A DNA stretch of 64,000 nucleotides, taken from assembly GCA_947628205.1 (NCBI GenBank), contig CANQYX010000002.1:4975-68974 (forward strand). Reading direction: 5' to 3'. The notes below the pieces were generated by a model, which was given only the letters and a program-made list of their open reading frames with translations, had not been told where the DNA came from and ran no database searches. This DNA comes from an uncultured Clostridia bacterium. GTDB lineage: Bacteria; Bacillota; Clostridia; Christensenellales; UBA1242. Made by a program: the position numbers and the translations under genes. Shown in pieces: positions 7,807 to 64,000 of this stretch (positions are counted from its first letter, which is position 1; each line of letters begins with the position of its first letter).

Positions 7807-9090
7807 TTAAACCTCGTGTTGGTTCTCTAAACGAAATTTTACCTCTTTTATAAGCTCAACTGCATTTATTAGCCGCGTGCCATATTTATTTGGCTTGCTG
7901 GCAGTTTTTTGCGCTATTTTTGCAAATTCATTCATTGTTAAGTTGGCGTCAACTTGTTTTGCTAAGCAAAACAGCCCTAAAACTTGCGGAATACTCCAAC
8001 TTGCACAACCAAAATTATTTTCATATTTATATCCGTCCGTTGTGTATGGCATTGGTGTTAATTTATCTGCATCAATAACAGCAACGGCATTTGGTTTTGG
8101 CACATTAGAAACATAATTGTCTAAATCTTCATTAGGTTTTTGACAGTCCTTTTTATACGCATAAGTGAAATTATTCCAAAATTCATTAGCACTAAAAATA
8201 GCAGTCCCATAGTTTTCAAGTTCTTTTACAAGTTTGTTATATTGTTTTAAAAGTTCGTCTTTCTTTTTCGTGTTTCCATTTGTATATAAATCAATATGAT
8301 AAGTGATTGATGCTGATAAACCAACAGCCACTATTTTTTCGCCTGCTTTTACGCGTTTTAAAATGTCTTTAAGAGCTGCAAATTCATTTTTGAGTTCCGA
8401 ACCAATATAATCAGCAAATTGTCCACCTTCTGTTCCGTCAGTTGCATAATAAACGCAATCTACATCGGGTGCAATTCCAATGTTTTTGCCCATTAGGCGC
8501 GAAAGGACTGAATACCCATGAAAATCTAAATTAGGGTTTTGCTGAATGTTGACAAAGTCAATTTTTCTATCTTTAAATTCCTTGTGAGACAAATCCAATT
8601 TTTTGTCTATATATGCAACCTTAACGCCCTTGCCCGTTATTCCCTGTTTATGCAATTGTTCCACGCCTAAACCTTTATATGTTTTGGCCTTAGCAACAAG
8701 TTTTTCGGGGTCGAAACCTTTTGGCAATTTAAATTTTGGTGGCCATTTTGTTGCAGTGCTAAACGGAATGCGCATCAGTTTTTCTGCTGGAATTTTAGAT
8801 AAATCCATTTTAGAAAAATCTTCCAAACTAAAACCCCAAATAAAATCGCCGGTATAAATTAAATCAATCAACTTATCCCTTTCAGCTTGAAGTTCAACAA
8901 TTTTTTTGCTGTTCTCGTCAGTTTTAGGTTGGCTAAACAAAACTTGAAGTTGTTGTTCAATTTCAATCTTTTCTTGAATTGTTTTTTCTAAGTTAAAATT
9001 TTCGCTTAATAAATTAGAAACCAAATCCTTATTCGCTCTATAACTTAAAATAATATTCTTAAACTCTTCAAAATTTTTGATTGTTTCCAC
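7807..9090 (-). CDS. Subtilase (S8)-like serine peptidase with a coiled-coil N-terminal region and no signal peptide
   Basis: 427 aa. Asp motif GKGVKVAYIDKKLDLSHKEF, His motif FHGYSVLSRLMG...GIAPDVD and Ser motif GCASWSIPQVLGL (compare GTSMAAPHVAG). The N-terminal ~75 aa are E/K/Q-rich. Confidence 0.5.
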   Translation of the reverse strand: METIKNFEEFKNIILSYRANKDLVSNLLSENFNLEKTIQEKIEIEQQLQVLFSQPKTDENSKKIVELQAERDKLIDLIYTGDFIWGFSLEDFSKMDLSKIPAEKLMRIPFSTATKWPPKFKLPKGFDPEKLVAKAKTYKGLGVEQLHKQGITGKGVKVAYIDKKLDLSHKEFKDRKIDFVNIQQNPNLDFHGYSVLSRLMGKNIGIAPDVDCVYYATDGTEGGQFADYIGSELKNEFAALKDILKRVKAGEKIVAVGLSASITYHIDLYTNGNTKKKDELLKQYNKLVKELENYGTAIFSANEFWNNFTYAYKKDCQKPNEDLDNYVSNVPKPNAVAVIDADKLTPMPYTTDGYKYENNFGCASWSIPQVLGLFCLAKQVDANLTMNEFAKIAQKTASKPNKYGTRLINAVELIKEVKFRLENQHEV

Positions 9091-9499: not shown

Positions 9500-9522
9500 T
9501 TTTTCTCCTTTGTTTTAAGGTT

Positions 9523-9697
9523 GAGATTCTTCACTTCGTTCAGAATGACACCTACCATATTTTTTAACACAAATTGACTAAATGTATATTCAATTTTTAA
9601 AACGACTGAAATAGACCACAGTCATGTTGAGCGTAGTCGAAACATCTCATTTTCTCAAAAAGATTCTTCTCTACGTTCAGAATGACACGAACATCTC
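9523..9697. repeat. Cluster of GAGAT...ATGACA hairpin repeats (yraN-rnhB spacer)
   Basis: 9523-9550 gagattcttcacttcgttcagaatgaca; 9621-9648 gtcatgttgagcgtagtcgaaacatctc (inverted copy); 9661-9687 agattcttctctacgttcagaatgaca; a partial cgaacatctc at 9688-9697. Confidence 0.85.
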
Positions 9698-10316
9698 ATT
9701 TTGCTTGCTTGTCGGCTAGGTTTTTGAGGAATGATAGACGGTGAATTGGTGTTATGCCGAACTTATTTATGGCCTCATAATGCTTTTTTGTGCCGTAACC
9801 AACGTTATTTTCAAAATCATAGTTTGGATAGGTTTTGGCGTATTCTGCCATCAATTTGTCACGATAAACTTTTGCAACAATTGATGCGCAAGCAATGGCG
9901 TAACTTGTGGCATCGCCGTGAATTATTGATTTTTCATTTTCTGCAACATGCAATTTAACAGCGTCAATTAAAAGCAAATCTGGCTTTACAACAAGTTTTT
10001 GATAACTTTCTTTCATTGCCTCGATTGTAGCTTGCAGGATATTAATTTGGTCTATGCACTGATTGTCGCGTTCGGTGATGGAAACTGCCAATGCCTTATT
10101 TAAAATTTGTTTATTTAGTTCCTCTCGCTTTTTTGCGGAAAGTTTTTTGCTATCAAAAACACCATCTATCATTTCGTCATAAGGCATAACCACGCAAGCG
10201 GTTACAACCGGACCAGCAAGCGGGCCGCGCCCAACTTCATCAATGCCGGCAATTGTTTTGATGTTCTTGTTTAATAGATGCTTGTCATATTCAAAAATTT
10301 CTTTTGTGTTTATCAT
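9696..10316 (-). CDS. rnhB: Ribonuclease HII
   Basis: GIDEVGRGPLAGPVV catalytic motif. Start moved to the ATG at 10316 (AAGGA SD); the track ORF extends to 10355. Confidence 0.9.
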   Translation of the reverse strand: MINTKEIFEYDKHLLNKNIKTIAGIDEVGRGPLAGPVVTACVVMPYDEMIDGVFDSKKLSAKKREELNKQILNKALAVSITERDNQCIDQINILQATIEAMKESYQKLVVKPDLLLIDAVKLHVAENEKSIIHGDATSYAIACASIVAKVYRDKLMAEYAKTYPNYDFENNVGYGTKKHYEAINKFGITPIHRLSFLKNLADKQAK

Positions 10317-10357
10317 ATTGTCCTTTTTTATTTTTTTGTTAAGATATCCATGCAATT

Positions 10358-10531
10358 GAGATACACTCCACTCGCTTTATACCCCACCGCGAAGCAAGTT
10401 CTTATGGGGACCCCGAATTTACCCCACTGCGAAGCAAGTTCTTGTGGGGACCCCGAACGCTCGGTTGGTATGACATGACACATTTATTTTATTGCGAGGC
10501 AACTTGACCATCAAGTTGGCGTGGCAATCTC
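10358..10531. repeat. Composite repeat: a GAGATAC-type element carrying two tandem CCCCAC...GTGGGG hairpin modules, followed by an inverted GAGATTGCC-type element
   Basis: gagatacactccactcgct, then two ~40-nt modules (about 10377-10417 and 10418-10457), then cgctcggttggtatgaca (to 10475). 10491-10531 attgcgaggcaacttgaccatcaagttggcgtggcaatctc is the reverse complement of the core of the 12738 copy. Confidence 0.85.
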
Positions 10532-10534
10532 AAA

Positions 10535-12737: not shown

Positions 12738-12930
12738 GAGATTGCCACGCCAACTTGATGGTCAAGTTGCCTCGCAATGACATTGAGATACACTCCACGC
12801 GTTCGCAATGCTCACTTGGTCGGTATGACATACACAATTGTCATGTTGAGCAAAGCGAAACATCTAGATTCTTCGCTTTTACCCCACTGCGCACAAGTGC
12901 TGGTGGGGACCCCGAACGCTCAGAATGACA
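12738..12930. repeat. Array of four GAGAT...ATGACA repeats (rimM-KH spacer), one with a nested hairpin module
   Basis: 12738-12782 GAGATTGCC type; 12785-12830 GAGATAC type; 12840-12865 inverted ATGTT type; 12866-12930 GAGATTCTT type interrupted by tttaccccactgcgcacaagtgctggtggggaccccgaa. Confidence 0.88.
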
Positions 12931-25347: not shown

Positions 25348-25464
25348 TGTCATCCTGAGTAAGCGGAGCGCATCGAAGGATCTTGATAACACTCAATGAG
25401 ATTCTTCGCTATTACCCCACTGCGAAATTAATTCTTGTGGGGACCCCGTACGCTCAGAATGATA
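25348..25464. repeat. Two GAGAT...ATGACA-family repeats (pcrA-rpsU spacer), one with a nested hairpin module
   Basis: 25348-25383 tgtcatcctgagtaagcggagcgcatcgaaggatct (inverted ATCCT type). 25398-25464 gagattcttcgct[attaccccactgcgaaattaattcttgtggggaccccgta]cgctcagaatgata. Confidence 0.85.
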
Positions 25465-26818: not shown

Positions 26819-26939
26819 AGATACACTCCACGCGTTCGCGATGCTCACTTGGTCGGTATGACATGTCAGCAAGAGCCAGCATGGCAATCTCTACCTTTAA
26901 AAATGTCATTCTGAGCGAGCAAAGCGAGCTGAAGAACTC
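26819..26939. repeat. Three GAGAT...ATGACA-family repeats (HIT-mtaB spacer)
   Basis: 26819-26863 agatacactccacgcgttcgcgatgctcacttggtcggtatgaca; 26864-26891 tgtcagcaagagccagcatggcaatctc (inverted, degenerate); 26904-26939 tgtcattctgagcgagcaaagcgagctgaagaactc (inverted; overlaps the mtaB stop). Confidence 0.8.
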
Positions 26940-28188
26940 AACCTTTTATTTCGCCTTTCATGCCGTCTAAATATGGCTCGGTTAGGGTTATATCGTAAAT
27001 TTCCCCAAGTTTGAGTTTAGTTGGTATGTAGGTATATATATAATTATCAGTATAGCCCAAACTGAAATTTTGGTCAACTAATTCAACCAAAACTTTGTGA
27101 GTTGTGTTTATATTTTGGCTGAAAAACGCATTTTTAAACTGATTGTTGAGTTCAATAAGCAGTTTTTCGCGCTGTTTTTTTGTGGCTTTATCCACCTTTG
27201 GCGCGTTTAACTTAAGGGCGACTGTGCCGGCGCGTTCGCTATACGGGAATATGTGCATAAAACTGAAATTGATTTTTTTCAAATTTTCAACCGTTGTGTT
27301 GAATTCCTCGTCCGTTTCGCCAACAAAGCCAACAATGATGTCGGTTGAAATTGATGCATTTTTGAAAATTTTGCGGATTTTTTGCGTTGTTTCAATAAAC
27401 TGCTCGATTGTATATCGCCTATTCATGCGTTTGAGGGTCTCGTTGCAAGCGGACTGCAAACTAAGGTGAAAATGTGGGCAGAAATTTTTGCATTGCTTTA
27501 AGGTTTTTAGCATTTCATCGTCCAGCACATTGCACTCTAACGAGGATAAGCGGAAGCGTTTGCCGCACTTATCCACGGCCGCAACAAGCGTTTTTAGCGC
27601 GAGTTTGCCATCAATTTTATAGTCACTCATATTTATGCCAGTTAGCACAATTTCTTGCGCTTTGGTGCTGGCAATTTCGTCAATAATATCTGCCAAATCG
27701 CGGCTGCGGCTGCGGCCACGCACATACGGGATGAGGCAATAAGTGCAAAAATAATCACAACCATCTTGAATTTTTATAAATTGTCGGGTGCGCGTTTCAA
27801 TTGGGCGCGAGGTGTTGGTATATTTATTATGAACAATATCTGGCAAAGTTTTGTTTGGTTTGTTTACAAACGCCATAATATCATTTTTGCCGGCGTTGCC
27901 AAGAACAGCAAAAACATTTTTATTTTTTAAAAATTGAGCCGGGTTATTTTGCGCCGCACAACCGCAAACGATAATTTTTGCGTTTTTATTGAGTTTTAAA
28001 ATTTTGGTGAGTGTTTGCCTAGATTTTTGCTCGGCAGTGTTGGTTACCGCGCAAGTGTTTAGCACATAAACATCTGCTTTAACAAACCCTTCGGCAATTT
28101 CATACCCCGCCGATTTTAGTTGGTTTAAAATGGACTGGCTTTCATATTCATTCACCTTGCAACCTAAGGTTACCACACTAGCAATCAT
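26938..28188 (-). CDS. mtaB: tRNA methylthiotransferase, MiaB-like (MtaB family)
   Basis: N-terminal UPF0004 Cys residues (LGCKVNEYES...NTCAV...CGC) and the radical-SAM motif CDYFCTYC. Next to rsmE, like B. subtilis yqeV-yqeU. Confidence 0.85.
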   Translation of the reverse strand: MIASVVTLGCKVNEYESQSILNQLKSAGYEIAEGFVKADVYVLNTCAVTNTAEQKSRQTLTKILKLNKNAKIIVCGCAAQNNPAQFLKNKNVFAVLGNAGKNDIMAFVNKPNKTLPDIVHNKYTNTSRPIETRTRQFIKIQDGCDYFCTYCLIPYVRGRSRSRDLADIIDEIASTKAQEIVLTGINMSDYKIDGKLALKTLVAAVDKCGKRFRLSSLECNVLDDEMLKTLKQCKNFCPHFHLSLQSACNETLKRMNRRYTIEQFIETTQKIRKIFKNASISTDIIVGFVGETDEEFNTTVENLKKINFSFMHIFPYSERAGTVALKLNAPKVDKATKKQREKLLIELNNQFKNAFFSQNINTTHKVLVELVDQNFSLGYTDNYIYTYIPTKLKLGEIYDITLTEPYLDGMKGEIKG

Positions 28189-29611: not shown

Positions 29612-29639
29612 GAGATTCTTCGCTCCGCTCAGAATGACA
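29612..29639 (+). repeat. Minimal ('empty') GAGATTCTT-type repeat
   Basis: gagattcttcgctccgctcagaatgaca. This is the same element as at 12866 and 25398, but without the nested hairpin module between the two CGCT motifs. Confidence 0.85.
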
Positions 29640-29667
29640 TAAATAAACTAATTTCATTTTATATTTT

Positions 29668-30690: not shown

Positions 30691-30704
30691 TGTATGTTTT
30701 TAAT

Positions 30705-30748
30705 AGATTGCCACGCGATTTTTATGGTAAAAATCTCTCGCAATGACA
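30705..30748 (+). repeat. GAGATTGCC-type repeat with a variable stem and TGG loop
   Basis: agattgccacgc-gattttta-tgg-taaaaatc-tctcgcaatgaca. Confidence 0.85.
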
Positions 30749-30775
30749 TAGGGATATATTGAGCTGCTTATAAAA

Positions 30776-37312: not shown

Positions 37313-38454
37313 TTAAAAATTTTTTGTTAAATCGTATAATTTTTGCGAAAAATTGTAATTTTTGATGTAATTTTGCAACTTTTCAAAAATTTTTGTGTTA
37401 AACTTTGATATTGTCTGTTTTGCACGTATCATAATATTTTTTGGCGAGTGGGCAAAATCTACAAACTCAATCATATCCACCGAATAGCCAAACGCACGCA
37501 AAATTTGGGCGCGGAATTCATCCGTTAAAAGTGCGCAAAATCTTTCTTTGATGATGCCGTCTTTCAGCATAATGTCTAACTCGCCGCCCTTGTTGATTGA
37601 CAAATTAATTTCGTGCTGGCAACATGGAACGGAAAAGATATATTTCGCTTTGTTTTGAATGGCAAAATTTAGCGCGTAATCGGTGGCCGTGTCGCACGCA
37701 TGTAGTGTGATAACCATATCAATTTTGCCAGAAAACAATTTGTCCTTTTTAACATCGCTCAAAACAAATTCTAGCCCAGTGTAGTTATATTTTTTGCCAA
37801 TTTGTTGCAAGTTTCAACCACGTCTTTTTTAATGTCGTAGCCAATAATGTGTGCCTTAATTTTTTTAATATTTACAAAATAGTGATAAATTAAAAATGTT
37901 AAATAACTTTTGCCGCAGCCAAAATCTAAAATCGTGATTTCTTTTAAATTAGAGTTTTTAAATTCGTCATCTATAATTTCAATAAACCTATTAATTTGTT
38001 TAAATTTATCGTACATGGCGGCGACAATTTTATTTTCTTTTGTGAAAATGCCAAGTTCTTGCATAATGGGAACATTGTCACCCTCGTTTAGCAGATAATT
38101 TTTTGTTTTGTTGTGCGCGGTTGAAATTTTTGCTTGCGTTATGGTGTTAGCTTGCTCTTTCTTTTTAAAGCCACCTTTTGAAAATGAAAATGAAATAGTT
38201 TTACCCTCTGCCTCAACCAAAATTTGCTTAAAATTTTTAAAATCTACACTTTCAACCGCATTTTCATAAGCCAAATTAGCATGAAAAACTTGTGTGCCTT
38301 TATAACTTTCAACTTGATATACGCGCTGCCCTTTAATTTCTACTGGGCGCAACATAATTTTTGAAAAATCTCCGTTTAGCCTATCACTAAACACAATTTT
38401 TTTAATAGGCAAATTTAAATTTAGCAAATAATCTTTAACTTCATCAATTTTCAT
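37313..38454 (-). pseudogene. Class I SAM-dependent methyltransferase split by a frameshift at an A6 run
   Basis: ORFs 37771-38454 (ends ...ILDFGCGKSYLTF...ETCNKLAKNITTLG*) and 37313-37810 (QQIGKKYNYTGLEF...LHACDTATDYAL...VPCCQHE) overlap. Adding one A to the run at 37790-37795 (T6 on the plus strand) gives a continuous ...CNKLAKKYNYTGLEF... ORF. Confidence 0.75.
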
Positions 38455-47472: not shown

Positions 47473-47590
47473 ATAAATATTAAGTTGTTTTCCGCTAATC
47501 TCCCAATTAGATTGCGTAATTAATATAGCATAAGTTTAAACTATTGTCAAGAAAATTTTATAAAATTTTTAAAAATTTTTAATTTTCATT

Positions 47591-52467: not shown

Positions 52468-52512
52468 GAGATTGCCACGGCAAAATCATGGTGATTTTGC
52501 CTCGCAATGACA
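52468..52512 (+). repeat. GAGATTGCC-type repeat in the dnaK-dnaJ spacer
   Basis: gagattgccacg-gcaaaatca-tgg-tgattttgc-ctcgcaatgaca. Confidence 0.88.
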
Positions 52513-52517
52513 TAATT

Positions 52518-54350: not shown

Positions 54351-54401
54351 ATATTTAAATCTCCTTTAATTTTTATTTTAATTTTTATTAACCCTATTTT
54401 G

Positions 54402-54490
54402 CTTACTTTTTTAAAGTAAGTTGTTTGCAGGGGTCTGGGGAGAATCGAAACTCCCCAGGTCTTTTGTAACTTTTCTAGCATAGAAAAGTT
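54402..54490. other. Three consecutive perfect hairpins in the grpE-dnaK spacer
   Basis: 54402-54420 cttacttt-ttt-aaagtaag; 54435-54458 ctggggag-aatcgaaa-ctccccag; 54468-54490 aacttttcta-gca-tagaaaagtt (touches the grpE stop). None is followed by a clear T-run on the minus strand. Confidence 0.6.
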
Positions 54491-58149: not shown

Positions 58150-59941
58150 CTAACTTTAAAATTGTAACAAACGCTTCGCTTGGCAGGTCCACACTGCCTA
58201 AACGCCTCATGCGTTTTTTGCCCTCTTTTTGCTTTTCCAATAGTTTGCGTTTACGCGTTACATCGCCGCCGTAGCATTTGGCAAGCACGTCCTTACGCAT
58301 GGCAGAAATTGTCTCTCTAGCAATAACCTTGCCGCCAATAACCGCCTGAATAGGAATTTCAAACAGATGGCGTGGAATAACAGTTTTAAGTTTTTCGCAC
58401 AGCGCACGCCCACGCGCATACGCTTTATCTTTATGCACAATAAGCGACAGCGCATCGCAAATTTCACCGTTTAACAAAATGTCTAACTTAACTAAATCGC
58501 TTTGCTGATAGCCGTTCAGTTCGTAATCCATACTGGCATATCCCTTGCTTAGCGATTTAATTTTATCAAAAAAGTCATAAACAATTTCATTTAGCGGCAT
58601 GGTGTAAATTAAGCGCGTGCGGTTAGCGTCGATATACTGCATGTCGTGGTAAATTCCGCGCCTATCTGCGCACAAATCCATAATTCCGCCCAGATATTCT
58701 TTTGGCGTGATAATTTCCATTTTAACAATTGGCTCTTCCATTTTAGAAATGCTTGCCATGGGCGGCATTTCGCTTGGGTTGGTTACGTCGAATTCTTTGT
58801 TTTTGTTGTCATATATTTTATACTCGACGCTTGGCGCGGTGGTTATAATTTCAAGGTCAAATTCGCGCTCTAGGCGTTCGGTTATAATTTCCATGTGCAA
58901 TAAGCCCAAAAAGCCACACCTAAACCCGTGCCCAAGCGCAAGCGATGTTTCTTTTGTAAAGTGCAGGCTGGCATCGTTTAATTTTAGTTTTTCTAGCGCA
59001 TCGTTAAGTTCTTGATATTTATCCCCATCAAGCGGATAAATGCCGCAAAACACCACGCTTGTGGCCTCTTTGTAGCCATCAAGTGGCTTTTCAAGTGGAT
59101 TATTTTTTAGGGTTATTGTGTCCCCCACCTTAGTGTCCGACACATTTTTTATTGATGCGGCAATGTAGCCCACCTCTCCTGCCATCAAACACTCGGTTGG
59201 GCTGGACTGCGGAGTGTAAACGCCCACTTCGGTTACCATGAAGGTTTTGTTGGTTTGCATAAACAAAATTTCATCGCCAACTTTAACGCTGCCATCGAAA
59301 ATGCGCACCATGCTGACTGCGCCCTTATAACTATCGTAATAACTATCAAAAATAAGGGCTTTTAGCGGTTTGTTTTCGTCTCCCTTAGGGCTTGGCACGG
59401 TTTTTACAATTGCATCTAGCACGCTAGTTATATTTAAGCCAGTTTTGGCACTAATTTCACACGCTTCATCGCACGGGATGCCTATAACATCCTCAATTTC
59501 CTTTTTTGTGCCAGCAACATCCGCACTAGGAAGGTCAATTTTGTTTATAACAGGGATAATTTCCAAATTAGCATCTAACGCCAAATAGACATTGGCAAGC
59601 GTTTGAGCTTGCACGCCTTGGCTGGCATCAACCACCAAAATTGCGCCCTCGCACGCGGCTAACGAACGGCTAACTTCGTAAGAAAAATCCACATGGCCAG
59701 GGGTGTCAATTAAATTTAGCGTATATTCCTCGCCATTATATGTGTATTTCATTGTTGCGGGGGTTAGTTTTATGGTTATGCCGCGCTCGCGCTCGATATC
59801 CATACTATCTAGCATCTGCTCTTCCATATCACGCTTGGCAACCGTGTTTGTAGCTTCCATCAACCTATCTGCCAAAGTGGATTTGCCGTGGTCAATATGC
59901 GCAACAATGCAAAAATTGCGGATTTTTTCTTGTCTTGTCAT
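58142..59941 (-). CDS. lepA: Translation elongation factor 4 (LepA)
   Basis: [29 protein letters not shown] and NKIDL GTPase motifs, with the LepA C-terminal domain. Confidence 0.96.
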
Positions 59942-59982
59942 GAAAATAGTATATCAAAACAAAATTGAAATGTCAATCTATA

Positions 59983-60060
59983 GGGGCTTTTGCGCAAAAG
60001 AATTTTGCGCACGCTTGGCAGTTTTGCCAAGCGAATGTGCCAAAGGCACATTAAAGCCCC
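59983..60060. other. Cloverleaf (four-way junction) element, copy A
   Basis: P1 GGGGCTTT/AAAGCCCC encloses TGCGCAAAA-gaa-TTTTGCGCA, c, GCTTGGCA-gttt-TGCCAAGC, g, AATGTGCC-aaa-GGCACATT. All 33 base pairs are Watson-Crick. Confidence 0.8.
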
Positions 60061-61532: not shown

Positions 61533-61556
61533 GGGCATTTTGCCCCTTATTTTTTT
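61527..61556. terminator. Bidirectional terminator between the sigma gene and the LRR gene
   Basis: aaaaaattaggggcattttgccccttattttttt. Confidence 0.75.
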
Positions 61557-63211
61557 GTGTAAATTGTATAACTTCCACTTGTGGATTTAGTAAAATATGA
61601 TGTATTGTTTAAATAAGTGTTGTTATATCCACCAATGCAAGATGTTAAAACTTTTAAAGTCCCACCTGTCTGCAACGCATTAATTAAGCGGCCGCAAGAT
61701 AAAGTATATGATGTTATTTCCCTATAAATATAGCTACTATTTAATGTAATTGTGTCAAATTTGCAATATGAGAAAAAATTTCCACTAATTCCCCTTAAGT
61801 TTGCGGGGATTGTTATAGTTTTGAATTTAAAATAAAAAGAACCATCACTAAGAATAAATTTGCATTGTTCGGGAATTGTTATAGAATTTAAATTACTGCT
61901 GCTAGTATATTTAAACATGATCATATATGGATTGTTAGAATTGCCCAAATACGCAAATCCACTATCTGTTGCACTATAATTTAAATTAACATTATGCCCT
62001 AAACCATCAAATGCATCATATCCTATATACTCCACGCTATCTGGAATAACAACATCACCTGAAACATATACGCAACCATCAAAAGCGGAATCCTCAATCC
62101 TTTGCAATGTTGATGGGAATTTTATACTTGTTAAAGAAGTACAAGAGTAAAACGCGTATCCTCCAATAGTTGTAATATTTAAATTTGACATATCTCCGCC
62201 ATTGCTTGAACCTAGCAATAATGTTTTTGAGGTTTTGTCAACTAACACATTGCATTCTTTGGTTTCCGTTTTATCTCTGCTAGTAAAAGTTGAGTTCCCT
62301 TTGTCCACATAAATTTTACTAAGACAATTATCTACGATTCCAAATGTTGTATTCCCAAAGGATTTTATCGAACTCCCAACATTAAGTTGAGATATATTAC
62401 TTCTATATAACATTTCATAAAGCTTGAAATTTTGCACATTGTTACCTATATTAAAAACAGCTCCGTCAGAATATAAGTCGCCGAAAACTCCAGCTCCACC
62501 GGAAGATGGGTCGGCGTCTGTTTCGCAATTTTTCGCATTATAATTGACAGTGGTTAGCGAAACACAATGTGCAAATGCACAGTGTCCTAAAAATGTTACA
62601 TTGTCATGAATGGTAACGCTTGTAAAATCGTTACTGTAAAACGCACTATTCCCAATAGACGTTACTTGATTAGGCACGACAAAATTCCCTGAAAATTGGC
62701 AAGAGTAAAAAGCATGATCAGAAATAGAAGTTATCCCTGTTGGTATATTTAATGTGCCGCTAAGTTTACGACAATTACAAAAAGCGTATGGGCCAATAGA
62801 TGTTAGACCATCTGGCAGTTTTAATGTTCCTTCTATCGTGTTACATTCATAAAAGGCCCTCTCTCCAATTGTTTTAACATTTTTGCCTATTTTTAGTGAT
62901 GTGAATTTTTTGGATTGATAAAATGCTCTTTCGCCTATTTCAGTAACGGGCAAATTGTTTCCGTTTTCATCAGCACGAGTGTCGGGTATTTCCAACACTG
63001 TTGTAGGATAACCATCATTATATCCCACCACCTTATATTCCGTGCCTGCCGCATTTTTTTCATATTTTAACAACTCTTTCGGAGCGGTGTATTGAATATT
63101 TACACTGCCATCTAGTTGTTGGCGGTCCAAACAAAAAACAAATGTTCCACATGCCAACAAAAATGAAAGGCATGCCATTATTGTTAAAAATTTTGTTCGA
63201 GATTTAAACAT
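61547..63211 (-). CDS. BspA-like leucine-rich-repeat surface protein with an N-terminal signal/anchor and a possible lipobox
   Basis: 554 aa. MFKSRTKFLTIMACLSFLLACG hydrophobic leader, then repeated ...IP..VTSIG..AFY.C... LRR_5-type units. GGAGGAAAG SD. Confidence 0.75.
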   Translation of the reverse strand: MFKSRTKFLTIMACLSFLLACGTFVFCLDRQQLDGSVNIQYTAPKELLKYEKNAAGTEYKVVGYNDGYPTTVLEIPDTRADENGNNLPVTEIGERAFYQSKKFTSLKIGKNVKTIGERAFYECNTIEGTLKLPDGLTSIGPYAFCNCRKLSGTLNIPTGITSISDHAFYSCQFSGNFVVPNQVTSIGNSAFYSNDFTSVTIHDNVTFLGHCAFAHCVSLTTVNYNAKNCETDADPSSGGAGVFGDLYSDGAVFNIGNNVQNFKLYEMLYRSNISQLNVGSSIKSFGNTTFGIVDNCLSKIYVDKGNSTFTSRDKTETKECNVLVDKTSKTLLLGSSNGGDMSNLNITTIGGYAFYSCTSLTSIKFPSTLQRIEDSAFDGCVYVSGDVVIPDSVEYIGYDAFDGLGHNVNLNYSATDSGFAYLGNSNNPYMIMFKYTSSSNLNSITIPEQCKFILSDGSFYFKFKTITIPANLRGISGNFFSYCKFDTITLNSSYIYREITSYTLSCGRLINALQTGGTLKVLTSCIGGYNNTYLNNTSYFTKSTSGSYTIYTKK

Positions 63212-63277
63212 CTTTCCTCCAACTAGTGCTTGTTTTATGCGGTTATTTATTTTTCCACATTTTTGCCCTATATATTC

Positions 63278-63307
63278 ATGTTAGCACATTGCCCCCCCCC
63301 CTGTCAA
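63278..63307 (-). promoter_or_regulatory. Putative promoter of the LRR gene with a G10 tract in the spacer
   Basis: On the minus strand, TTGACA (63307-63302), then GGGGGGGGGGcaatgtgc (18 nt), then TAACAT (63283-63278) with an upstream TG. The homopolymer is at 63292-63301. Confidence 0.5.
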
Positions 63308-63420
63308 GCGATTTTATGCTATTTTTTAAAATTTTTTTAAAAAAATTTTAAAAAACGGGCAATTTGTACCCGTTTTTAATAAAAATATCGTTTTTTACAG
63401 CAATTTTGCTATATAAGGTT

Positions 63421-63599
63421 GAGATTGCCACATCACTTCGTTCCTCGCAATGACATTTTTAGTGAGATTCTTCGACTTCACTTCGTTCCGCTCAGAATGA
63501 CAAGTGAGTGGTTGAGATTGCACAGCGGTTTGATGGTCTAACTGCTTCGCGATGACTTAAGAGATTCTTCGACTTCACTTCGTTCCGCACAGAATGACA
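63421..63599 (+). repeat. Array of four GAGAT...ATGACA repeats
   Basis: 63421-63455 gagattgccacatcacttcgttcctcgcaatgaca; 63464-63502 gagattcttcgacttcacttcgttccgctcagaatgaca; 63514-63557 gagattgcacagcggtttgatggtctaactgcttcgcgatgact; 63561-63599 gagattcttcgacttcacttcgttccgcacagaatgaca. Confidence 0.88.
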
Positions 63600-63602
63600 A
63601 AA

Positions 63603-63674
63603 GGGCTTTGCGCGCGCGTCAGCGCGTTGGCGGTATCGACCGCCAACTTTGCCTCGTGGCAAAGTGCAAAGCCC
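63603..63674. other. Cloverleaf (four-way junction) element, copy B
   Basis: P1 GGGCTTTGC/GCAAAGCCC encloses GCGCGC-gtca-GCGCGT, TGGCGG-tatcga-CCGCCA and CTTTGCC-tcgt-GGCAAAG. It shares its termini with copy A. Confidence 0.75.
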
Positions 63675-63698: not shown

Positions 63699-63730
63699 AA
63701 AAAAAATGGAGAACGTTTGCACATTCTCCA
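63699..63730 (-). terminator. Rho-independent terminator after rnpB
   Basis: On the minus strand, tggagaatgtgcaaacgttctcca followed by T8. Confidence 0.75.
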
Positions 63731-63749
63731 CCATCCAAAAGGATGAAAG

Positions 63750-64000
63750 CATTTAGGTGGCAGTTTGGTCTATAAGCCGAGTTCTGTGTTAGATGGTCAT
63801 CTATCTAATCCATAAATTGCTTTATGGCTTTAGCGGTGTACGTATTCTAGCGAGCAACGTTAAAACGAATACATTTACCTTGCTTCGGATGGGGTTTGCA
63901 TGGACCAAGTTTGTCGCCAAACTCGCGGTGAGCTCTTACCTCGCCTTTTCATCCTTACTAACCACTCAGGGGTATAGCGGTTATTTTCTGTTGCACTTTC
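63750..64000 (-). ncRNA. rnpB: RNase P RNA, type-A-like (partial; 5' part beyond the window end)
   Basis: The reverse complement contains GAAAGTGCAACAGAAAATAACCGC, GGATGAAAAGGCGAGGTAAGAGCTCACCGCGAG, AAACCCCATCCGAAGCAAGG and ACAGAACTCGGCTTATAGACCAAACTGCCACC. These parallel the E. coli M1 RNA blocks GTGCAACAGAGAGCAAACCGCC, GGTAAGAGCGCACCGCG, AAACTCCACCCGGAGCAAGG and ACAGAACCCGGCTTATCGGTCAGTTTCACC. The 3' end is approximate. Confidence 0.85.

Follow-up and report, generated by a model that had tools for sequence, protein, structure and literature searches.

Gene content of the window and location of the two elements

The window, that is the whole stretch of 64,000 nucleotides that was analysed, comes from a housekeeping region of a Clostridia chromosome and has a GC content of 38%. 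It carries hslV, topA, dprA, rplS, trmD, ffh, ftsY, smc, ligA, pcrA, priA, rnc, plsX, ackA and pta, together with an hrcA-grpE-dnaK-dnaJ cluster with lepA. Gut metagenomes contain abundant relatives of its LepA protein (88-93% identical), among them one named Candidatus Onthoplasma (Christensenellales). When 50 ORFs of the 64-kb window were compared with Pfam, no Y1 transposase, other transposase, recombinase or integrase was found among them. Two overlapping minus-strand ORFs (37313-37810 and 37771-38454) matched positions 1-76 and 72-141 of the Methyltransf_32 profile, one having the N-terminal and the other the C-terminal half of a single domain, which suggests a frameshifted or split methyltransferase gene. 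Just upstream of tRNA-Val, at 47476-47538, a contig of the same species (L081, 99.6% identical) showed a strain-level cluster of indels (deletions of 21, 4, 3 and 2 nt, with substitutions); the remainder of the 14 kb compared was near-identical.

A GC-rich stretch of 72 nt, hereafter copy B, lies near the RNase P RNA gene (rnpB), and a sister copy, copy A, is found 3.6 kb away. Both are intergenic and occupy promoter- or terminator-proximal spacers. The coordinates of the two copies, of their helices and of the surrounding features are collected in Table 1.

Copy A sits in a spacer of 170 nt between lepA and a divergently oriented sigma-factor gene, next to the lepA promoter-like site. As the lepA ATG is found at 59941, only 6 nt after the -10 box, the lepA mRNA is probably leaderless. 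The same arrangement was seen in a sister species (L087, about 9955-10003), with TTGACT-17-TAAAAT-6 nt-ATG in place of the site at 59941-59976 on the minus strand of the window. As both the lepA -35 box and the likely promoter of the sigma-factor gene have copy A on their upstream side, the element is probably untranscribed and no part of the lepA transcript.

Read on the minus strand, the surroundings of copy B consist of rnpB, its terminator, 30 nt, copy B, 3 nt, four repeats of a GAGAT-stem...stem'-ATGACA frame, a second terminator-like hairpin, a promoter-like site and a leucine-rich repeat (LRR) gene of the BspA type. The initial annotation had already placed copy B 3 nt from the repeat array, as we found (the last repeat ends at 63599). 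Its distance of about 25 nt to the rnpB terminator had to be corrected, the terminator stem starting at 63705. The spacer between the -35 and -10 boxes of the LRR promoter-like site holds a run of ten G on the minus strand (C10 on the plus strand, 63292-63301), and a tract of eight G (about 8093-8100) is present at the same place in the promoter of a non-orthologous LRR cassette of another species (L466). A homopolymeric G tract placed in this way, in the promoter spacer of a surface-protein gene, is classically associated with phase variation through slipped-strand mispairing.

Table 1. Position of the cloverleaf copies, their helices and the neighbouring features in the window
Feature	Position	Strand	Remarks
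Copy B, whole element	63603..63674	none	closing stem and three hairpins; 0-1 unpaired junction bases
Copy B, closing stem, 5' arm (GGGCTTTGC)	63603..63611		pairs with 63666-63674 in the MFE and centroid structures
Copy B, hairpin 1 (GCGCGC gtca GCGCGT)	63612..63627		5 Watson-Crick bp and 1 terminal G-T
Copy B, hairpin 2 (TGGCGGT atcg ACCGCCA)	63628..63645		extendable to 9 bp (63626-63647), overlapping hairpin 3 by 2 nt
Copy B, hairpin 3 (ACTTTGCC tcgt GGCAAAGT)	63646..63665		6/8 bp same as in copy A hairpin 3
Copy B, closing stem, 3' arm (GCAAAGCCC)	63666..63674
Copy A, whole element (78 nt)	59983..60060	none	cloverleaf; all 34 bp perfect; no unpaired junction base
lepA promoter-like site (TTGACA-17-TATACT)	59948..59976	-	11/12 matches, TG-extended; -35 box 6 nt from copy A
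rnpB	63757-64000	-
rnpB intrinsic terminator	63705..63732	-	30 nt from copy B
GAGAT-stem...stem'-ATGACA array, 4 repeats	63421..63599	+	63421-63455, 63464-63502, 63514-63557, 63561-63599
Second terminator-like hairpin	63351..63377	-	closes the block of copy B and four frames, ahead of the LRR promoter
BspA-type LRR gene and promoter-like site	61547..63307	-	gene 61547-63211; promoter-like site 63278-63307
Frame repeats, part 1	9522-9551, 9621-9647, 9661-9688, 10356-10476, 10494-10533, 12738-12783, 12786-12831, 12840-12865, 12866-12930
Frame repeats, part 2	25349-25383, 25398-25464, 26819-26864, 26904-26940, 29613-29640, 30704-30749, 52468-52513, 63421-63599

Fold of the two copies and their kinship

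In order to establish the structure of copy B, its sequence was folded with RNAfold. The plus-strand RNA formed a closing stem of 9 bp around hairpins of 6, 7 and 8 bp with loops of 4 nt, which is the closing stem with exactly three hairpins described in the initial annotation. Its folding energy was -50.2 kcal/mol, against -27.2 +/- 3.0 for dinucleotide shuffles (z -7.57), and 0 of 200 shuffles folded as well. The minus strand adopted the same fold at -46.2 kcal/mol (z -6.8), and with DNA parameters the same cloverleaf was obtained on both strands (z -8.1 to -8.3). Furthermore, the fold was retained in the MFE and centroid structures when the minus strand was folded within a context of 416 nt.

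Copy A reads GGGGCTTT / TGCGCAAAA gaa TTTTGCGCA / CGCTTGGCA gttt TGCCAAGCG / AATGTGCC aaa GGCACATT / AAAGCCCC, and is more regular than copy B, with 8+9+9+8 perfect Watson-Crick base pairs and loops of 3, 4 and 3 nt. Four independent assemblies of the species (L083-L086; three from ENA and one from Logan) carry it without a single base difference, so that it is no assembly artefact. Copy B is known from one assembly, the contigs of the other same-species assemblies ending short of it. Searches with the LRR protein or with the 231-aa sigma factor yielded no second assembly with copy B, and TatD homologues led to other species.

The helices of copies A and B were compared by hand, because MAFFT misaligns the stems. 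This helix-by-helix comparison revealed that a closing stem of 7 bp, GGGCTTT/AAAGCCC, is common to both copies. The end quoted for copy B in the initial annotation, AAAGCCCC, goes beyond the paired closing stem by 1 nt, to 63675. In hairpin 3, six of the eight base pairs are identical and the other two are altered on both sides. Hairpins 1 and 2 have 0-1 bp in common in register, and share only a shifted TTGGC and a GCGC word. Within one copy, the three hairpins are not copies of each other. The relatedness and common architecture that had been proposed for the two copies were thus borne out, and they are homologous in the frame and, clearly so, in hairpin 3. Hairpins 1 and 2 look replaced, in a modular manner, rather than gradually diverged.

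When its hairpins are removed, copy A is reduced to the perfect palindrome GGGGCTTT|AAAGCCCC and copy B to GGGCTTTGC|GCAAAGCCC. The hairpins are therefore placed exactly at the dyad centre of a palindromic frame.

The differences between the copies had also been read as compensated base changes, and hence as a sign of structural selection. We could not uphold this reading: in register, hairpins 1 and 2 have no more than 0-1 bp in common, and the two strands fold equally well. As perfect palindromes always look compensated when they are compared, the differences between copies A and B are no evidence of selection for RNA structure. In genome scans, such compensatory differences between perfect palindromes must not be taken for RNA covariation.

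In the MAFFT alignment, the left flank and start of copy B (63597-63616, CAAAAGGGCTTTGCGCGCGC) was set against the 3' half of copy A hairpin 1 (59995-60014, CAAAAGAATTTTGCGCACGC) with 16/20 identical positions. In GC-rich sequence of low complexity this match may be fortuitous, or it may reflect the way in which the modules originated.

Rarity of the structure

To assess how unusual the cloverleaf is, a descriptor was written for three adjacent perfect hairpins inside a closing stem, every stem having at least 5 bp and neighbouring helices being separated by no more than 2 nt. Two matches were obtained in the 64-kb window, copies A and B, and no other 90-nt fold of the window is as stable as these two. 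A further 4.6 Mb of DNA, made up of 80 lepA loci of Clostridia, about 250 viral and 120 metagenome loci, and the loci of the sister species, yielded only three weak, AT-rich matches with short stems (mostly 5-6 bp). The Clostridia part of this negative control amounted to 1.4 Mb of lepA loci, in which the best LepA was 70% identical among the matches listed. The perfect-stem descriptor found no cloverleaf in about 90 kb of sister-species loci, and none was present in 0.74 Mb of metagenome loci among the frame-repeat matches listed.

A relaxed descriptor, with G-U pairs allowed and stems of at least 4 bp, was run on the window and the sister species. Copies A and B were again the only true four-way junctions (-50 and -48 kcal/mol), and the next candidate reached -31 kcal/mol and had no junction. 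Pattern scans of viral contigs (closing stem; stem and GCGC; hairpin 3 and stem) returned chance matches only, none of which folds as a cloverleaf, and blastn against plasmids and phages returned chance fragments only. The initial observation is thus confirmed as real and non-random.

The third most stable local fold of the window is located in the grpE-dnaK spacer (54399-54469), where strong hairpins with stems of 9 and 17 bp, including GGTCTGGGGAG..CTCCCCAGGTC, were observed.

Orthologous spacers in sister species

A comparison of orthologous spacers, which had been put forward as the way to distinguish mobility from vertical conservation, was carried out on loci of four to five sister species (L087; L088-L091; L464, L465 and L469; L466). 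LepA is 90-93% identical and rnpB 86-97% identical between these species and the window. Copy A was absent from all the sister lepA-sigma spacers (58-205 nt, AT-rich; four to five species), and copy B from all the spacers downstream of rnpB in the same range of species. Since both copies are missing at the orthologous sites, they would be recent, lineage-specific gains and not vertically conserved elements. Mobility was deduced here from the comparison between species only; no strain of the same species devoid of a copy was found.

In the sister species, the 3' end of a convergent sigma-factor gene is reached 0-130 nt after the rnpB terminator. The species of the window carries at this place, between the second sigma-factor gene and rnpB, an additional block of about 2.2 kb that comprises the LRR gene, its promoter, the terminator, the four frame repeats and copy B, the latter at the rnpB-side edge. 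The genes between copies A and B are syntenic core genes in the relatives. In L466, the lepA-sigma spacer, which houses copy A in the window, is taken up by another LRR cassette that has frames, a terminator and a poly-G promoter of its own. The LRR proteins of the two species are non-orthologous (25-39% identity), and no cloverleaf was detected at the edges of the L466 cassette.

Neighbouring frame repeats and nested hairpins

The array next to copy B belongs to a family of intergenic repeats of the form (G)AGAT-NNN...N'N'N'-ATGACA, about 14 copies of which were found in the window. From copy to copy, the 3-nt stems show covariation (TGC/GCA, TCT/AGA, GTT/AAC, CCT/AGG). Some interiors are short, and others accommodate one or two additional GC-rich hairpin modules, for instance at 10356-10476 and 12866-12930. 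As short and long forms of the same frame coexist, very small hairpin units appear to have been inserted in the frames in a nested fashion. A second module, TTACCCCAC..GTGGGGACCCCGAAC, was noticed inside frames, once or twice in tandem, at 10379-10462, 12878-12921 and 25412-25455.

No frame repeat was seen in three of the sister loci (L087, L088 and L091), and four were counted in L466. Downstream of dnaK, a frame is found at corresponding positions in the window (52468-52513) and in L466 (17903-17945); its inner stems differ (GCAAAATCA/TGATTTTGC versus CAAACTTGA/TCAAGTTTG) and the loop ATGGT is identical.

A subtype of the frame, GATTGCCACG-N16-30-TCGCAATGAC, was present in at least 120 metagenome loci, from hosts of 30-69% GC, with at least 121 distinct inner sequences on metagenome contigs. 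A perfect hairpin of at least 5 bp was found in 60% of the inner sequences listed, versus 5% of shuffles. The frame repeat had no match in Rfam, and literature searches by sequence and by peptide words found no published name for it. Its translations look like motifs that are often seen in spurious ORFs, such as DCFVPRNDG and EILRFAQNDK.

A conserved outer stem with an exchangeable, perfectly paired interior is thus a common principle in the genome of the window and beyond, of which the cloverleaf is the most elaborate local case.

Origin and possible roles of the cloverleaf

Several explanations were weighed against these observations. That copies A and B are unrelated chance palindromes, or the product of faulty assembly, is scarcely credible and has already been largely refuted. 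Hairpins 1 and 2 do share almost nothing between the copies, and copy B comes from one assembly only; however, nothing comparable was found in the 4.6 Mb of comparison DNA, the two copies have the same closing stem and agree to 75% in hairpin 3, and copy A was recovered unchanged from four independent assemblies. Furthermore, both copies are contig-internal and contain three different hairpins each, unlike fold-back chimeras, which are found at contig ends. A structured RNA, either a small RNA or a cis-acting element whose four-way junction would serve for example as a protein scaffold or as a block to 3' exonucleases, deserves more attention. The very stable fold (z -7.6), kept in the 416-nt minus-strand context, the location of copy B and the four frames between the rnpB terminator and a second terminator-like hairpin of the same strand, and the UUUUGU that follows the closing stem of copy B on that strand would all suit such an RNA. 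We nevertheless regard it as unlikely, as both strands fold equally well, the loop and junction nucleotides are unconserved between A and B, no promoter-like site lies beside copy B on either strand, copy A occupies a divergent spacer on the upstream side of the lepA -35 box, both copies are missing in sister species, and neither Rfam (E up to 10) nor ARAGORN recognised the element. Only one G-U/G-T pair is present, at a helix end, and the six loops of A and B include neither a GNRA nor a UNCG tetraloop. No feature specifically indicates an RNA under selection.

Two explanations at the level of DNA were also considered. Negative supercoiling accumulates between divergent genes. The element might act through extrusion of a cruciform, or four-way junction, as a supercoil sink, an insulator or a site for a junction-binding nucleoid protein. 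Perfect palindromes with centres of 3-4 nt and no junction bases are suited to extrusion, copy A is found between divergent genes at 6 nt from the lepA -35 box, and copy B between a terminator and the next transcription unit. The arms of 5-9 bp are short, however, so that extrusion from duplex DNA would be energetically unlikely, and the sister species manage without the element at the same promoters; such a site is in our opinion improbable. Still less probable is a folded recombination site, or its scar, belonging to a mobile LRR-gene cassette and defined by structure like an integron attC site. The position of copy B, exactly at the rnpB-side edge of the lineage-specific LRR block, the different LRR cassette that L466 holds in the spacer of copy A, and termini that are conserved around a variable yet always paired centre are what such a site would be expected to show. 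Each of these situations is represented by a single example, however, the LRR proteins are non-orthologous, the edges of the L466 cassette bear no cloverleaf, the window encodes no integrase or recombinase, and the termini are unlike the attC R''/R' consensus and leave no extrahelical bases.

The explanation that we prefer, to which we give a probability of about 45%, is that copies A and B form a small, species-specific family of nested-palindrome repeats at the DNA level, recently gained through a hairpin-dependent process on single-stranded DNA. The unit would be a short perfect palindromic frame, GGGCTTT|AAAGCCC, in which three short perfect palindromes stand head to tail at the dyad centre. 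As palindromes nested in a palindromic frame, they allow each of the two strands to fold into a fully stacked four-way junction, whether as single-stranded DNA or, in the event of transcription, as RNA. The data show the fold, the relatedness of A and B, their absence from the sister species and the kind of spacer that they occupy, whereas the mechanism of gain and any function are inferred. The elements may have been mobilised in trans by a structure-recognising enzyme, as REP/REPIN elements would be by RAYT transposases. They could also have arisen by fold-back or template-switch synthesis, which yields perfect palindromes by construction and without selection. The same process might populate this genome with the GAGAT..ATGACA frames that hold variable hairpins. 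Effects on the cell, such as a barrier to exonucleases or to read-through if the element is transcribed, or cruciform extrusion between divergent promoters, would then be secondary.

Against the preferred DNA-repeat reading stand the small number of copies known (two), the lack of a transposase or recombinase in the 64-kb window, the lack of a target-site duplication, and flanks in which no motif common to copies A and B was found. The location of copy B and the four frames between two minus-strand terminators also fits a transcribed unit.

If further copies confirm the family, its repeat unit would be a perfect four-way junction whose arms can be exchanged, a form of palindromic repeat of which we know of no description for REP, BIME, REPIN or MITE elements. 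Together with the widespread nested hairpin repeats, the cloverleaf could show how tiny structured repeats arise and nest in each other. In the boldest version, which we hold to be rather improbable, no mobile or recombinogenic element before the cloverleaf would have been defined by structure instead of sequence: it would be a fully stacked four-way junction of single-stranded DNA with replaceable arms, acted on by a junction- or hairpin-specific enzyme according to an attC-like logic, and marking the edges of movable LRR cassettes in uncultured, Christensenellales-like Clostridia of the gut. If there are only two copies, it would be a local curiosity of little import. At present, it is a lead and not a discovery.

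Comparison with known families

The closest parallels are offered by the REP, BIME and REPIN elements. REPINs are hairpin-forming mobile DNA elements associated with RAYT and able to adopt an alternative 'clover' fold (PMC3116915). This clover fold has been proposed as the transposase substrate, and REPINs are thought to be moved by RAYT transposases (PMC3116915). Like the cloverleaf, REP, BIME and REPIN elements are short, GC-rich extragenic palindromes that form hairpins in single-stranded DNA or RNA, cluster near other repeats, have a lineage-specific distribution and are not expected to leave a target-site duplication. However, REP families consist of inverted doublets of one unit with a conserved sequence of about 16-20 nt, in tens to hundreds of copies. 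In the cloverleaf, the three hairpins are mutually different, and what the two copies have in common is limited to the 7-bp closing stem and hairpin 3. Two copies were found in 64 kb of the host genome and none in about 90 kb of sister loci, and no RAYT gene was recognised by Pfam among 50 ORFs of the window. Membership in the REP/REPIN family was rejected on the conserved sequence and inverted-doublet arrangement, the extragenic and palindromic character being shared.

A MITE was considered as well, as the closing stem could act as terminal inverted repeats. The body of 72-78 nt consists of hairpins throughout, and no direct repeat is present in the flanks (tctata / accttc for copy A, gacaaaa / ccattaa for copy B), so that this candidate was discarded.

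Integron attC sites resemble the cloverleaf in their complementary conserved termini, in a variable but paired centre and in a folded, sometimes branched, single strand; in addition, one copy (B) of the cloverleaf lies at the edge of a gene-sized insertion. The attC core RYYYAAC/GTTRRRY differs from the termini GGGCTTT/AAAGCCC, and whereas attC sites have extrahelical bases and an unpaired central spacer, the stems of the cloverleaf are all perfect, with 0-1 unpaired junction bases. With core sites that do not match, no integrase in the window and no cassette array, identification as an attC site was rejected.

With a tRNA, the element has in common a length of about 72-78 nt and the topology of a four-helix cloverleaf. 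Its loops are of 3-4 nt instead of 7-8, its arms reach 8-9 bp, and it contains no junction nucleotides and none of the conserved tRNA positions. ARAGORN and the Rfam model RF00005 detected four real tRNAs elsewhere in the window and none at the cloverleaf copies. A tRNA-like CCA tail was also considered and dismissed, being inconsistent between copies A and B. In Rfam, no match over copy A or B was obtained at the gathering score for the whole window or at E values up to 10 around the copies. A scan for intrinsic terminators called the rnpB terminator and the second site and not the cloverleaf; TTTTGT follows the stem only on the minus strand of copy B, and nothing comparable exists at copy A. 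A sigma-54 promoter in hairpin 2 of copy A was dismissed on account of its wrong spacing.

Nearest in the window itself are the frame repeats, which, like the cloverleaf, are GC-rich and intergenic, combine a conserved outer stem with variable, perfectly paired inner hairpins, sometimes two in tandem, and are missing from several sister loci; the array of four frames directly abuts copy B. The cloverleaf differs from them in its outer stem, in having no conserved single-stranded GAG/GACA flanks, and in its three inner hairpins, against none to two in the frames. The frame repeats are widespread in metagenomes, in hosts of 30-69% GC, whereas the cloverleaf was found nowhere else in the DNA scanned.

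As only two copies are known, the classification of the cloverleaf is provisional: it is REP/REPIN-like in kind and stands outside those families, as a fresh variety of small extragenic palindromic repeat.
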